Made by a program: the position numbers and the translations under genes. A stretch of DNA of 32,000 bases from Chlamydiales bacterium (GTDB lineage: Bacteria; Chlamydiota; Chlamydiia; Chlamydiales; JAAKFR01): NCBI GenBank assembly GCA_041395025.1, contig JAWLBH010000001.1:150001-182000 (forward strand), written 5' to 3'. The notes under the pieces were generated by a model. The model saw only the letters and a list, made by a program, of their open reading frames with translations, did no database searches and was not told where the DNA came from. Below, in pieces: positions 24,509-27,690 of the stretch. The first letter of the stretch is position 1. Each line of letters begins with the position of its first letter.

Positions 24509-27274
24509 ATGGAACGAGCGTTTCGCTTACTTTTTAATCTCCATCCGGGAGAGTGGAAAAAAGCTTTTTGTTTTATTGTTCTAGGTCTCTTTTGGAGTAT
24601 CGGAGGTTACGGCACATTTACTCTCTCTGAAGGGCTTTTTCTTGAGCATATAGGAGCAGGAGCTCTTCCTCAGGCTTATCTAGTGATTGCAGCCTCCATG
24701 TGCCTGTTATCTCTTATTTTGATTTTTTGCCTTAACCGTGTTTCAATCCGTCACCTTTTATTTGCCTTAATGGGATTATCGATTGTTTCAATCTTTGGTT
24801 TTTTACTTTTTTTATCCTCTGATTCTAAATTGCTGTGGTTTCTTTTTAAAGTGATTGGATGGGTCATGCCAATCTCAACATATATCGTCTACTGGGCTTT
24901 TGTTGATCTTTATTTTGATCTCCAAGATGGAAAACGTTTTTTTTGTCTGTTTAACTCAGTCACTTTTCTAGGGGATGCTCTTGGTGGAGGATTAATTTCT
25001 TTTTTTCTTGAACCACTTGGGATTCATATGCTTCTTCTTTTGTTTAGCCTCTTTATGATAGCTGCACTCCCTTTTATTTTCGCAATTAATCAGAGACTTA
25101 ACCCTATTTTAGAAGATCCTAATCAAAGCCATCATCCTATTAATCCTTTAAATTTACATAGCTTATTCACAATCATTATTCGTTCAAAATTCACTCTCTG
25201 CCTCCTCTTTTTTTATTTTTCTATGCAGGTGTTAGCAATTGTGACTGAATTTAATTACATGGAAACCTTTACTAAAATTTTTGCTCAATCAAAAGAACAT
25301 GCTGTCACTAAATTTATTGGAAACCTTGGAATGTGGATTTCTCTTACGAATATGTTTTTTGGGATGATGATTTATAGTCGTTTAGTCAAAAAAATTGGTA
25401 TCAATAATATGGTCATTATCGCTCCTTCATTTTTCCTAGCTATCTTTGCTGTATGGAATTTAAAAGAAATCCTACCAATTGCTATTTTTGGGATGATTAC
25501 TCGAGAAGGAATTGCATATGCATTTGATGATAATAATCTTAATTTATTGATTTCTGGAGTACCTAATCGTATCAAAAATCAAGTACGCATTATCATTGAA
25601 TCTTTTTTTGAACCTGTTGGTATGTTTATTGCTGCTTTGCTCCTTCTTTCTTTTCAACAACAAACTCATCGTCTTGGGTTGATCCTTGCTTGTATGGCAA
25701 TCATGGTTGTCTTTCTCCTAAGAAAATATTATGCTAGTGCTATTTTTCGCAACTTAGTGACAAGTGCAATCTGTTTTGAGAAAAAAAAAGCTACAGACTG
25801 GATCGCTCATTTTTCAAAAAAAGAGCAAAAACAAGTACAATTTCTCCTTATTTCAAAACTAAAAAATGCAACAGAAAAAGAGCAAATTCTTGCTTATGAA
25901 TATCTTTTGAAAATCAATAATAGTAAAATTCTTCCTCATTTAATTAACCATTTAGGAAAACTGAGCCTACCAATTAAAATCAAAGCCATTGAATTATTTA
26001 GTGATAGTAGGTGGGCAAAAGAACCAATTGTGATCGAATGTCTAGAAAGATGGTGTCGTATTTCTCCCCACCCAGCGATGAAAAGTGTGATTCATTTCTA
26101 TCTTGCTCGTCATGGACTGCAACATCCTAAAGAGATTTTCAATGATCTTCATAGCGATCATTTACGACTACGTGCAGCAGCGATTCTTACTATGAAAACC
26201 TCTCCGAAAGCTTCTCAATTTCCTCTTCTTTTTACACAAGCGACTAAAAAACTCGATGATCTGCTCAATTCTAAAGTGGAAGAAGAAGTCTGCTCTGGAT
26301 TAGAAATTTTAGGTTTTGAAGGCAATTCTGATAATATTCAATGCATTCTCCCCTACCTTAGATGCTCATCATTGATGATCAATCGTACAGCTGCAAAATC
26401 AATTGCTTATTGTGTCAATCCTCACAAAAAAGAACATGCAAATTGGATTATTCAAGGTCTTCTTTATACAAATGATCCAAATGCACGACACTTTCTTCTT
26501 AAAGCTTTATATACTCTTTCTAATCCCACTATTCTTCAACCGCTTATTCTAGCTTCAAAACATTTTCGTCCAAATGAACTCAAATTAACAGAAGATATTA
26601 TATTGAAAATTCAACCTCTTTCATCAAATACTCTTTTAAATATCCTCTGTACAAAATCTATACCAGATAGTTGTCGTTTGCTAGCTGGCAGAATTTTAGG
26701 TAAAATCGATCGAAAAACACTTCAAAAAAATCTTTATTCAATTGTGAAATTTGAGATTGACCGAGCATATTTCTATTTTTATCATGCTTATGAAATTCAG
26801 AAACAACTACCTGAGCAAGAACTTTCTATATTAGAAAATGCCCTATTCACTAATTACCAATCTATTATAGACTTTATTATTCAAATACTTGGTGTCGCGG
26901 GGTCAATTGAGCAAAGCCAAATTCTTTCAATGACTTTACGTAGTCCCAATCCAAAAATTCGTGCTCAAGCAATTGAATCTTTAGATAAAACATGTGAAAA
27001 TCATATTTTCAATCTTCTAGAGCCTTTGATTAATGAACAACACCCAGAGAAAAAAATCCACTACTACTTAAAAAATGGTGGTATTCCTTATAATTTGAAT
27101 CAATTATTAAATACTATGCAAAACTCCTCTTCAATTGGTGATCAGATTGTGTCGATTAGTTTAAAAGCACGTTTACAAACTCCTGACTGGCGTCAAGCTC
27201 TCCGCATCAAGTTAGAAGAAGGTGCAAAAGTCTTTAAAAATCTTGCTAACGAACTTCTTGAGCTAAAAAGATGA
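24509..27274 (+). CDS. Polytopic transporter (MFS / nucleotide-transporter-like) fused to a C-terminal HEAT-repeat domain
   Basis: 921-aa ORF. Residues 1 to about 420 contain at least 10 hydrophobic helices. Residues from about 440 to 921 contain repeated HEAT/PBS-lyase-like units (LRSPNPKIRAQAIESLDKT, HSDHLRLRAAAILTM, NDPNARHFLLKALYTL, IPDSCRLLAGRILGKI). Confidence 0.7.
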   Translation: MERAFRLLFNLHPGEWKKAFCFIVLGLFWSIGGYGTFTLSEGLFLEHIGAGALPQAYLVIAASMCLLSLILIFCLNRVSIRHLLFALMGLSIVSIFGFLLFLSSDSKLLWFLFKVIGWVMPISTYIVYWAFVDLYFDLQDGKRFFCLFNSVTFLGDALGGGLISFFLEPLGIHMLLLLFSLFMIAALPFIFAINQRLNPILEDPNQSHHPINPLNLHSLFTIIIRSKFTLCLLFFYFSMQVLAIVTEFNYMETFTKIFAQSKEHAVTKFIGNLGMWISLTNMFFGMMIYSRLVKKIGINNMVIIAPSFFLAIFAVWNLKEILPIAIFGMITREGIAYAFDDNNLNLLISGVPNRIKNQVRIIIESFFEPVGMFIAALLLLSFQQQTHRLGLILACMAIMVVFLLRKYYASAIFRNLVTSAICFEKKKATDWIAHFSKKEQKQVQFLLISKLKNATEKEQILAYEYLLKINNSKILPHLINHLGKLSLPIKIKAIELFSDSRWAKEPIVIECLERWCRISPHPAMKSVIHFYLARHGLQHPKEIFNDLHSDHLRLRAAAILTMKTSPKASQFPLLFTQATKKLDDLLNSKVEEEVCSGLEILGFEGNSDNIQCILPYLRCSSLMINRTAAKSIAYCVNPHKKEHANWIIQGLLYTNDPNARHFLLKALYTLSNPTILQPLILASKHFRPNELKLTEDIILKIQPLSSNTLLNILCTKSIPDSCRLLAGRILGKIDRKTLQKNLYSIVKFEIDRAYFYFYHAYEIQKQLPEQELSILENALFTNYQSIIDFIIQILGVAGSIEQSQILSMTLRSPNPKIRAQAIESLDKTCENHIFNLLEPLINEQHPEKKIHYYLKNGGIPYNLNQLLNTMQNSSSIGDQIVSISLKARLQTPDWRQALRIKLEEGAKVFKNLANELLELKR

Positions 27275-27690
27275 AGTTAAATTTGATTGACAAAGCATTC
27301 ATATTGAAAAAAACTTTGATTTTTGGTGCATTAGATTTAGAATTGCTGTTAACTATTTCAAATCATTTAGAGATAGTTAATCATAAGAAATCTGAAAAGA
27401 TTTTTCAATCTGATCAACAAAGCCGCTACACTTATCTTATTGTGAATGGAAAGGTTTTAATAGAAGATAAAAGAGGAAACTATCTTGCTGAGCTAGATTC
27501 AGGAGAATTTTTTGGAGATGAGTCTCTGTTTAATGAAAAACCACGAGCTTATGAAGCTATTTCTAAAACTCCCTTGACTCTACTTACTCTTTCTTACTCT
27601 CATTTGATCAGTATCATCAACGAATGCCCAACAGTGGCAATCGCCTTACTTAAAGCCTATAATCAACATATAGATTTTCGAAAGAGGTAA
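27271..27690 (+). CDS. Stand-alone cyclic nucleotide-binding domain protein
   Basis: 139-aa ORF whose ATG overlaps the upstream stop (ATGA, 27271-27274). cNMP-binding beta-barrel pattern: IFQSDQQSRYTYLIVNGKV...LDSGEFFGDESLFNEKPRAYEAIS (phosphate-binding cassette with conserved PRA Arg). No HTH or other output domain. Confidence 0.75.
   Translation: MKLNLIDKAFILKKTLIFGALDLELLLTISNHLEIVNHKKSEKIFQSDQQSRYTYLIVNGKVLIEDKRGNYLAELDSGEFFGDESLFNEKPRAYEAISKTPLTLLTLSYSHLISIINECPTVAIALLKAYNQHIDFRKR

Follow-up and report, generated by a model that had tools for sequence, protein, structure and literature searches.

A carrier-HEAT gene coupled to a stand-alone cyclic-nucleotide-binding protein gene: a split NTT-HEAT-cNBD module in a Chlamydiales genome

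Two overlapping genes in the 32,000-nucleotide stretch of DNA analysed here (the window) form a two-gene operon that is a split form of the NTT-HEAT-cNBD module, with a membrane carrier and a HEAT-repeat solenoid joined in one polypeptide and a cyclic-nucleotide-binding (CNB) protein encoded immediately downstream. The pair shows the C-terminal HEAT fusion, the PF00027 domain at the 3' junction and the sequence kinship to proteins of other phyla that characterise this family, and it is the orthologue carried by a MAG of an uncultured 'Chlamydiales bacterium' (P0001 and P0099; 100% identity). The module is already known and is not a new discovery. In 2017 Major, Embley and Williams (PMC5381601) described NTT-HEAT proteins whose CNB domain is either encoded next to them or part of the same chain, Chlamydia trachomatis being among their examples; they also arrived independently at the hypothesis that cAMP tunes NTT-HEAT transport and put NTT-HEAT forward as a drug target. 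The novelty implied in the first-pass annotation of this DNA must therefore be withdrawn, as architecture, operon layout and the cAMP-tunes-transport idea were all published in that work. A literature search for NTT-HEAT, or ADP translocase with HEAT and cyclic nucleotide, returned only this paper and two that cite it. No functional work on NTT-HEAT or cNBD members (interaction, ligand binding or transport) was found in the literature, and the statement that the family lacks an experimentally characterised member is borne out to that extent.

Results

The gene pair and its flanks

The coordinates of the pair and its associated features are collected in Table 1. The junction reads ...AAAAAG ATGA AGTTA, the ATG of the CNB gene (27271–27273) overlapping the TGA of the carrier gene (27272–27274), exactly as first annotated. 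Homologues, full-length or partial, were found for both products (93 for the 921-aa protein, with 29–100% identity, and 63 for the 139-aa protein), so both ORFs are real genes and not chance ORFs; those of the larger protein extend across Chlamydiota and include Chlamydia felis, C. caviae and C. abortus. Their N-terminal consensus, MxxALRLLFNL, supports the start codon of the 921-aa ORF. The upstream promoter is a candidate only, since such sites are no commoner in the region than in shuffled sequences. At the other end of the pair, the hairpin is likely a bidirectional terminator that closes the operon; it was not called by a consensus terminator scan because its T-run is short, and direct folding confirmed it. 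No nucleotide-cyclase domain was found in any window ORF of at least 100 aa, so that the reported lack of a cyclase in the window holds for all ORFs of that size.

Table 1. Features of the carrier-HEAT and CNB gene pair (positions are those of the window).
Feature	Coordinates	Strand	Basis
Candidate sigma-70-like promoter, TTGAAT-18-TAAAAT	24437..24466	+	9/12 consensus matches; 278-nt AT-rich spacer 5' of carrier gene
NTT-HEAT gene (carrier and HEAT solenoid, one polypeptide)	24509..27274	+	ORF, 921 aa
Carrier domain (aa 1–420), ~12 transmembrane helices, MFS fold, remote NTT/TLC superfamily member	24509..25768	+	AF2, Foldseek, family profile
Cytoplasmic HEAT-repeat solenoid, aa 428–920	25790..27268	+	HEAT_2, PDB profile matches, AF2
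ATGA start/stop overlap (translational coupling)	27271..27274	+	Junction read in sequence
Stand-alone CNB protein gene	27271..27690	+	ORF, 139 aa; PF00027 match
Phosphate-binding cassette F81–A96, FGDESLFNEKPRAYEA	27511..27558	+	Residues 81–96 of 139-aa protein
14-bp hairpin beginning within CNB-gene stop codon, shared with convergent acpP	27688..27718	.	RNA fold −16.5 kcal/mol, z = −5.8

Carrier domain and HEAT solenoid

In the AlphaFold2 (AF2) model of the 921-aa protein (pLDDT 86.3, pTM 0.75), residues 15–419 form about 12 long membrane helices and residues 428–920 a continuous α-solenoid of about 30 helices, all paired. Together with a HEAT_2 match, this agrees with the initial description of a polytopic half and some 480 aa of HEAT-like repeats. 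Among the Pfam families proposed for this protein in the first-pass annotation only HEAT_2 was recovered; TLC (PF03219) gave no match at E<=1, with no TLC match in NCBIfam either, and MFS_1 remained below threshold (18 bits against a cut-off of 33.4). PF03219 was reached by two of 16 chlamydial orthologues (best 3.6e-5).

As the window carrier lacks a TLC match in Pfam and NCBIfam, its kinship with the NTTs was shown via family profiles against the PDB and via the fold. The best Foldseek matches of the carrier were AtNTT1 (9j3m, 1.1e-5) and C. pneumoniae NTT1 (9j3n, 1.2e-5), with target TM scores of 0.63–0.65; NorA and NupG were placed close behind (5–7e-5) and VMAT also below the NTTs. The carrier-domain family profile matched 9j3n (E=3.9e-7) as the sole transporter in the PDB, positions 117–315 of the profile aligning with 153–367 of that structure, including the segment W-x-F...(E/D)(A/G)KRF(Y/F)xLF. 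NTT1 is thus the nearest solved fold to the modelled carrier, a new detail of the present analysis. Given that there is no Pfam TLC match and that the NTT fold match stands only slightly above those of other MFS carriers, a nucleotide substrate is only tentatively assigned. Many polar and charged residues in or beside the membrane helices are invariant (for example E15, K142, R143, R291, E333, D341–N343, R360 and E368), and the mean pairwise identity of the carrier domain is 0.42, compared with 0.39 for the HEAT region.

The assignment of the C-terminal half to the HEAT repeat family (Pfam PF13646/PF02985) follows from a model match above threshold (HEAT_2, 7.2e-07, 29.8 bits against a cut-off of 27.7) and from the α-α solenoid itself. 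HEAT_2 was found in 15/16 orthologues, and AlphaRep/HEAT entries of the PDB were matched down to 1.4e-15 over profile positions 577–748. The best-conserved C-terminal blocks of the protein lie at residues 721–840.

CNB protein and its phosphate-binding cassette

The 139-aa protein matched cNMP_binding (PF00027) in Pfam (6.8e-14, 52 bits against a cut-off of 27.5) and nothing else significantly, in line with the barrel devoid of helix-turn-helix, kinase or channel output that had been proposed. Its AF2 model (pLDDT 84.5) consists of N-terminal helices, an eight-strand barrel, the helix of the phosphate-binding cassette (PBC) and the B/C helices, and its top Foldseek matches are the cAMP- or cGMP-bound CNB domains of PKA-R, MtbCRP, PKG and HCN (TM 0.77–0.84).

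The cassette quoted in the first-pass annotation, FGDESLFNEKPRAYEA, is in place with its Gly-Asp and Arg, so that the protein has the Gly-acidic residue ... Arg pattern of the CNB family. Little or no variation is seen at F81, G82, E84, F87, R92, Y94 and A96, whereas position 83 is either Asp or Glu; this Gly, its acidic neighbour and the Arg are kept in 97–100% of members (G82 invariant, R92 97–100%). Judged from these alignments, the cassette is under selection. Gly-Asp is found in the window protein and in many fused relatives, and Gly-Glu in the Chlamydia species. Gly-Asp is therefore not a peculiarity of the window gene, and Gly-Asp as the mark of a degenerate or unusual site was rejected for the same reason. 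The frequency of Gly-Asp in fused relatives and the retention of Gly-Glu in Chlamydia are new details. In the chlamydial CNB proteins the canonical Ala of the cassette's R-x-A-[ST] stretch is replaced by Tyr94, which is invariant, so that base specificity, and even the binding of a cNMP, is only tentatively assigned. Conservation within the CNB proteins is highest in the N-terminal helix region and in the B/C helices, the same elements that shift upon ligand binding in known CNB domains.

Conserved adjacency, coupling and co-loss

Adjacency of the two genes was followed across Chlamydiota in the 35 GTDB species representatives that have a full-length (~830–940 aa) carrier homologue and enough downstream DNA, including Chlamydia spp., Clavichlamydia and Parachlamydiales. 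In every one of these 35 informative loci the next gene 3' of the carrier gene is the CNB gene, with both on the same strand in 34; this bears out the conserved linkage that had been anticipated, and chance adjacency was rejected. Where both ORFs could be resolved on one strand (33 related loci), 22 junctions are 4-nt start/stop overlaps (21 ATGA and one GTGA, in L026), and the others extend from 8 nt of overlap to a gap of 18 nt.

Shortened, HEAT-poor carriers (445 aa in L044, 520–556 aa in L037 and L039–L042, and 684 aa in L043) are placed at three positions within the chlamydial clade in a neighbour-joining tree without support values, and none of them has a CNB neighbour. In L044, the HEAT region and the CNB gene could have gone together in a single deletion of contiguous DNA. 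CNB divergence follows HEAT divergence more closely than carrier divergence (partial r 0.56 vs 0.28), a co-variation of rates that is no more than suggestive. On this comparative evidence, the carrier and CNB genes constitute a conserved, translationally coupled and functionally linked unit.

Single-chain relatives in other phyla

The only non-chlamydial matches of the 921-aa protein are P0094–P0098 (E 3.7e-17 to 4.5e-8), with TLC/HEAT/cNBD architectures. Among the 119 other listed relatives of P0097, mostly of ~950–1130 aa, nearly all the full-length ones carry HEAT and PF00027, and many PF03219 as well. The CNB domain is located at their extreme C-terminus, colinear with the chlamydial gene order. 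The first-pass annotation had pointed to single-chain carriers of which this pair would be a split version; the relationship stands, but the order is carrier-HEAT-CNB and not the carrier-CNB-HEAT given there.

The profile of the chlamydial stand-alone CNB proteins aligns nearly end to end with the fused C-terminal domains, most of the scores lying at 52–88 bits (110 hits with a median of 78.5, of which three fall below 40), and the FFGD cassette start and a B/C-helix motif are common to split and fused domains. Applied to a library of 1.84 billion proteins, the same profile gave the top-ranking multi-CNB proteins at most 74.7 bits for their best single domain (median 50). The ranking of that whole-library search is dominated by proteins with 4–15 CNB domains, whose scores are summed; the fused relatives were not revealed by it and were revealed by a local domain-level hmmsearch.

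Comparison with known systems

The single-chain NTT-HEAT-cNBD proteins (~950–1130 aa, from Tectomicrobia/Entotheonella and other bacteria) share the order of carrier, HEAT region and C-terminal CNB domain with the window pair but comprise one polypeptide instead of two, and they are only ~14–24% identical to the window carrier-HEAT protein. Many of them reach Pfam TLC, unlike the window carrier, and their cassette ends in PRSASAV, with the canonical Ala, where the chlamydial proteins have PRxY. Such proteins also occur in cyanobacteria, Deltaproteobacteria, Bacilli and oomycetes (Major et al. 2017, PMC5381601).

The Chlamydia pair is much closer, all three modules, the gene order and the short intergene distance being as in the window. 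The loci share the same synteny, with an SNF transporter gene, the carrier-HEAT and cNBD genes, and a convergent acpP-fabG; the Chlamydia carrier-HEAT proteins have 36–39% full-length identity to the window protein, and apart from Gly-Glu in place of Gly-Asp in the cassette there is no difference in kind. The single NTT-HEAT gene of C. trachomatis is presumably CT234/CTL0486, with CT235/CTL0487 downstream, consistent with the annotations seen. For these four designations the literature offered no functional work, just entries in tables: 'MFS transport protein', a 1.77-fold decrease under iron starvation and 'putative transcriptional regulator'.

The canonical NTT1/Npt1 carriers of Chlamydia and plastids (PF03219, TC 2.A.12; 9j3m, 9j3n and 9j3o) have the same 12-helix MFS-type fold as the window carrier, with 13–15% identity in the structural alignment, and lack both the 490-aa HEAT tail and the CNB partner. 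HCN/CNG channels and the bacterial MlotiK1 and SthK offer an analogy, in that a membrane transport protein responds to the cyclic-nucleotide occupancy of a CNB domain that shares its fold and cassette with the window protein; however, these are channels with the CNB domain fused via a C-linker, whereas the window pair combines a carrier as target with a sensor on a polypeptide of its own, and the coupling would presumably run through the HEAT region.

Discussion

The first gene encodes an inner-membrane carrier of 12 helices, assigned to the NTT (TLC, ATP/ADP-translocase) branch of the MFS superfamily and extended by a cytoplasmic HEAT tail of ~490 residues. The second would be translated by termination-reinitiation at the ATGA, its amount probably being tied to that of the first, and its product is a lone CNB domain that lacks an output domain and whose phosphate-binding cassette looks functional. 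We consider it probable that this protein binds a cyclic nucleotide, docks on the HEAT tail and modulates the carrier. In this scenario the binding of a 3',5'-cyclic nucleotide would shift the N-terminal and B/C helices and thereby alter the seating of the CNB protein on the solenoid, which would relay this shift to the carrier's cytoplasmic face, and the transport of a polar, probably nucleotide-like substrate would be raised or lowered as a result.

The nature of the ligand may differ from this proposal: there is some chance, though a minor one, that the CNB protein senses something other than cAMP or cGMP (c-di-AMP, a 2',3'-cNMP or a nucleoside monophosphate) or serves as a ligand-free structural subunit in a module that is still regulatory. 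The invariant Tyr after the cassette Arg, the Asp or Glu after the Gly and the lack of a cyclase among window ORFs of at least 100 aa are compatible with such a role, and CNB-fold proteins with non-cNMP ligands do exist, the nucleoside-binding trypanosome PKA-R being among the fold matches. C. trachomatis DacA produces c-di-AMP, for which binding proteins are still to be identified (PMC12422730). A cAMP or cGMP site is favoured by the near-universal Gly, acidic residue and Arg, which hold the ribose-phosphate, by the near-canonical FFGD...PRSASAV cassette in fused relatives of free-living phyla, and by top structural neighbours that are all cAMP/cGMP binders; no CNB domain is known to bind c-di-AMP, which counts against this particular ligand.

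The role of the membrane protein can likewise be read otherwise. HEAT solenoids are generic protein-docking platforms, a surface of ~490 residues far exceeds what one 139-aa partner needs and the carrier is only remotely NTT-like, all of which would suit a transceptor or scaffold in which the carrier-like domain senses or anchors while the solenoid recruits the CNB protein, and perhaps others, for signalling. This seems unlikely, given that the carrier is conserved at least as well as the HEAT region and retains invariant polar and charged membrane-helix residues, as is typical of an active carrier, and that HEAT-less versions survive as stand-alone carriers. Far less credible still is a CRP/FNR-type transcription regulator lying incidentally beside the carrier gene. 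Relatives are annotated 'CRP/FNR family transcriptional regulator' and CTL0487 is listed among 'putative transcriptional regulators' (PMC8762339), but the 139-aa protein stops right after the CNB C-helix, without a helix-turn-helix, and the CRP model PRK11753 is matched only in its sensor part (positions 21–123 of 214; 31.8 bits against a cut-off of 266). Adjacency, coupling and fusion with the carrier-HEAT protein are moreover conserved across phyla, and a CRP-type factor was rejected on account of the missing DNA-binding domain.

With regulation of a carrier by its CNB partner as the preferred reading, the present analysis adds modestly to the published module: comparative evidence for a CNB-HEAT partnership and for selection on the cassette, and a confident model beside solved NTT structures. 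A bolder and improbable extension is that the CNB partner is the missing receptor by which a cyclic nucleotide controls the third NTT-type carrier of chlamydiae and thereby also the change from replicating to infectious form and back. As to such a receptor, the nucleotide could be host cAMP or the bacterium's own c-di-AMP. Older work by Kaul and Wenman (1986), as cited in PMC4527707, reported an arrest of chlamydial development by cAMP, and c-di-AMP drives RB-to-EB conversion in C. trachomatis (PMC12422730). If this extension were true, an obligate intracellular bacterium would read a second messenger at the point of nutrient import, with the HEAT solenoid as transducer. We know of no carrier for which this coupling principle has been described. 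Chlamydiae depend on host nucleotides imported via the related Npt1 and Npt2 carriers, and the pair, a well-defined and tractable experimental problem, is conserved across Chlamydiota including human and animal pathogens; a third, sensor-equipped NTT relative could thus be a control point of their energy or nucleotide parasitism.

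Organization of the two-gene unit

The carrier-HEAT and cyclic-nucleotide-binding (CNB) open reading frames that the first-pass annotation had described as overlapping by four bases are both present in the window, and the shared bases of stop and start are readily seen in the junction sequence AAAAAG-ATGA-AGTTA. This overlap, together with the AT-rich spacer of 278 nt located 5' of the carrier-HEAT gene and a hairpin facing the convergent acpP, defines a compact bicistronic unit. The surrounding synteny is shared with Chlamydia species, with an SNF-type symporter upstream and convergent acpP-fabG downstream (followed in the window by fabD-fabH). 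The order SNF, carrier-HEAT, CNB and acpP-fabG recurs in the Chlamydia genomes L019, L020, L024 and L030, a conservation that is unusually deep for the phylum.

Two small proteins encoded between the symporter and the carrier-HEAT gene (111 and 168 aa) gave no match in Pfam, and each contains the long two-lobed hydrophobic stretch that is a hallmark of chlamydial inclusion-membrane (Inc) proteins; we take their genes to occupy the incB/incC place of C. trachomatis. Three short antisense ORFs (67-73 aa), lying inside or opposite real genes, are probably chance ORFs of AT-rich DNA. Elsewhere in the window, a stand-alone protein of 217 aa carries an HD_4 domain (RelA/SpoT-type hydrolase, 4.6e-14) and is by its sequence a possible small alarmone hydrolase; Chlamydiota are usually said to be without (p)ppGpp metabolism. 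A UbiX-like flavoprotein gene and a UbiA-type prenyltransferase gene, overlapping by 16 nt, look like a coupled quinone-biosynthesis pair.

Positions of the features in the window, in the large protein and in related loci (L0xx)
Feature	Location	Position	Strand	Remarks
HD_4 protein gene	window	10690-11343	+	217 aa
UbiX-like flavoprotein gene	window	15358-15963	-	
UbiA-type prenyltransferase gene	window	15948-16796	-	
Gene order from SNF symporter to recR	window	21257-22738 through 31105-31704	+ (both end genes)	SNF symporter, TM2-domain protein, two Inc-like genes, carrier-HEAT, CNB, convergent acpP-fabG-fabD-fabH, recR
Inc-like gene	window	23261-23596	+	111 aa
Inc-like gene	window	23724-24230	+	168 aa
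Antisense ORF	window	23311-23514	-	
Antisense ORF	window	23994-24215	-	
Antisense ORF	window	25372-25575	-	
Weak promoter-like site	window	24437-24466		sole one in the 278-nt spacer; such sites no denser than in shuffles
Carrier-HEAT gene	window	24509..27274	+	921-aa ORF
CNB gene	window	27271..27690	+	139-aa ORF
14-bp hairpin	window	27688-27718		starts in CNB stop codon; -16.5 kcal/mol, z = -5.8 vs shuffles
acpP	window	27739..27999	-	convergent with CNB gene, faced by hairpin
Membrane part	large protein	aa 15-419		about twelve long helices in two six-helix halves (AlphaFold2)
Disordered loop	large protein	aa 204-211		between the six-helix halves (AlphaFold2)
Alpha-alpha solenoid	large protein	aa 428-920		unbroken (AlphaFold2)
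Carrier-HEAT gene	L025	5989..8763	+	
CNB gene	L025	8781-9236	-	
CNB gene, long ORF call	L012	8676-9179		
Shortened carrier	L044	1302-2639		445 aa; keeps syntenic place by acpP/fabG
Shortened carriers	L037, L039-L042	~5950-7640		520-556 aa; other gene neighbourhood
Shortened Simkania carrier	L043	147-2201		684 aa

The large protein as a remote member of the NTT superfamily with HEAT repeats

Of the Pfam families suggested by the first-pass annotation, cNMP_binding was found in the small protein and HEAT_2, barely over threshold, in the large one, whereas the MFS_1 match of the latter stayed below threshold and no match to the nucleotide transporter (NTT) model TLC was obtained for it; this model was reached weakly by 2 of 16 orthologues. 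The AlphaFold2 model (71-sequence alignment, pLDDT 86.3, pTM 0.75) is confident and predicts the polytopic half and the repeat region originally read from the sequence. A Foldseek search of the PDB placed Arabidopsis NTT1 (1.1e-5) and Chlamydia pneumoniae NTT1 (1.2e-5) at the top, with further MFS carriers close behind. The C. pneumoniae protein was also the only transporter retrieved from the PDB by a profile of the whole chlamydial family (E = 7.9e-6) and by one of the carrier domain only (E = 3.9e-7), in an alignment that includes the segment W-x-F ... (D/E)(G/A)-K-R-F-(F/Y)-x-L-F. The HEAT part matches designed alphaRep/HEAT proteins (E down to 1.4e-15). Thus, Pfam, fold and profile matches together make the large protein a carrier of the NTT superfamily, if a remote one, that ends in a HEAT tail. 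Since in the usual MFS topology the N- and C-terminus are both inside the cell, this tail would be cytoplasmic.

The small protein is a stand-alone CNB domain

The small protein matches cNMP_binding alone (6.8e-14, 52 bits with respect to a cut-off of 27.5), and the NCBIfam CRP and encapsulin models cover just its sensor part, far under their cut-offs. It was modeled as a complete CNB domain (pLDDT 84.5) with no DNA-binding domain, in agreement with the barrel-only architecture proposed at first. The nearest structures are the cAMP- or cGMP-bound domains of PKA-R, mycobacterial CRP, PKG and HCN channels (TM 0.77-0.84). Its identity as a CRP/FNR regulator, which is what the database label says, fails on the absence of the DNA-binding domain.

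The phosphate-binding cassette reads F-G-[D/E]-E-[S/A]-[L/I]-F-x-x-x-x-R-x-Y-x-A across the family, with Gly82, Glu84, Phe87, Arg92 and Tyr94 invariant or nearly so. At position 83, where the canonical residue is the ribose-contacting Glu, most environmental lineages have Asp, and Chlamydia species and Parachlamydiales loci have Glu. Many fused relatives from other phyla also start the cassette with FFGD, so Gly-Asp is a common variant wherever a CNB domain is attached to an NTT-HEAT protein, and its reading as a sign of decay was rejected. The trait specific to the proteins of Chlamydiota is instead an invariant Tyr, which takes the place of the Ala found in canonical cassettes and in the fused relatives (PRSASAV). 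Outside the cassette, conservation is highest in the N-terminal helix region (LIDKAFLLKKT-LF--LDLDLL) and in the B/C helices (ECPSVA--LL--Y), the elements that in characterised CNB domains shift upon ligand binding and touch the effector. From this pattern we infer that selection acts on both ligand binding and signal output.

Conservation of the pair across Chlamydiota

Full-length homologues of the large protein (29-69% identity) occur across the Chlamydiota, among others in Chlamydia felis, C. caviae, C. abortus and Clavichlamydia, and below them there is an abrupt fall to a handful of distant matches. Of the 63 homologues of the small protein, nearly all are stand-alone (137-148 aa), and a few are shorter and probably partial sequences. 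The window proteins are 100% identical to the database entries P0001 and P0099, and their genes represent the known pair in an uncultured Chlamydiales MAG.

A survey of 44 loci from species-representative genomes left 35 with a full-length homologue and sufficient downstream DNA. The adjacency was borne out in all of these, the CNB gene lying directly 3' of the carrier-HEAT gene in 35/35 and co-oriented with it in 34. The sole locus with opposite strands (L025, an uncultured Chlamydiaceae MAG) keeps the genes adjoining, and the flip may reflect either an inversion at this site or an error of assembly. The 4-nt start/stop overlap is found in 22 related loci (ATGA in 21, GTGA in L026), and in the remaining ones the two genes overlap by up to 8 nt or stand up to 18 nt apart. 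In L012 the mechanical ORF call starts the CNB gene 84 nt upstream, at an in-frame ATG within the carrier gene; this long form is probably an artefact, because the conserved ATGA start is present too.

Fused relatives and shortened carriers

Single-chain proteins of the kind that the first-pass annotation mentioned for other phyla were found. The distant matches of the large protein combine a TLC-like carrier with HEAT repeats, two of the five with a C-terminal PF00027 domain. With one of them as the query, a further search listed 119 additional proteins, mostly of ~950-1130 aa, nearly all the full-length ones containing HEAT and PF00027 and many also PF03219; the few with an organism name belong to Tectomicrobia/Entotheonella. 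Their module order is the gene order in the window. When the stand-alone CNB proteins of Chlamydiota are made into a profile, it fits the fused C-terminal domains almost end to end, mostly with 52-88 bits (median 78.5 for 110 matches, three below 40), compared with a lower maximum of 74.7 and a lower median of 50 for the best single domains of the top multi-CNB proteins in a library of 1.84 billion proteins.

The shortened carriers (L037, L039-L044) amount to a natural experiment: their HEAT tail is mostly or entirely missing, and no CNB gene was seen near any of them. A rough neighbour-joining tree of the carrier domain, which has no support values, spreads them over three positions within the chlamydial clade, and the 520-556-aa group may represent relocated paralogues. 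In pairwise divergence, the CNB protein is more closely correlated with the HEAT region (partial correlation 0.56) than with the carrier (0.28); since the pairs are not independent, this is no more than suggestive. These sequence comparisons suggest that, of the two parts of the large protein, the HEAT tail is the one needing the CNB partner.

Functional implications

Adjacency, fusion, the shortened carriers without CNB gene and the divergence correlation together make a functional link very likely, and we have little doubt that the two proteins work together as a split form of NTT-HEAT-cNBD. The full statement, including cyclic-nucleotide binding and regulation of transport, is held with less assurance, although we favour it. 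In the best-supported reading, the CNB sensor would dock in trans on the cytoplasmic HEAT solenoid and tune carrier activity, and through the ATGA overlap the sensor would be made in step with the carrier. The same module could alternatively respond to a ligand other than cAMP or cGMP, and C. trachomatis does make c-di-AMP, which drives development and whose receptors are unknown (PMC12422730); the membrane protein could also have a scaffold or transceptor role. Chlamydial development is reported to be disturbed by exogenous cAMP (PMC4527707 and a 1986 paper cited there), an effect that may run through either the bacterium or the host.

In omics tables CT234/CTL0486 is labelled an MFS protein or a putative membrane transport protein, and CTL0487 is entered as a putative regulator of transcription; from the C. 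trachomatis gene order and these annotations, we assume them to be the C. trachomatis orthologues of the pair. According to Major, Embley and Williams (Genome Biol Evol 2017, PMC5381601), proteins with an NTT-HEAT fusion are widely distributed and form one monophyletic group, and fusions of all three domains, NTT-HEAT-cNBD, also occur, fusion and fission having happened repeatedly. In C. trachomatis they noted just one NTT-HEAT gene, which is uncharacterised and shows conservation in Chlamydiaceae. They further raised the possibility that the cNBD binds cAMP and tunes the uptake of ATP by the NTT. The observation was repeated in a 2019 review, and NTT-HEAT sequences from marine chlamydiae feature in the trees of a preprint from the same year; no functional study turned up in the literature library searched. 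The finding is real and, as an unsolved problem, of biological interest, and the anatomy of the module was correctly read in the first-pass annotation; both the pair and the cyclic-nucleotide-tuning hypothesis had been published before. What is added here is the depth of the translational coupling, the joint absence of HEAT tail and CNB gene, the view of the cassette across the whole family and the structural placement of the carrier beside solved NTTs.
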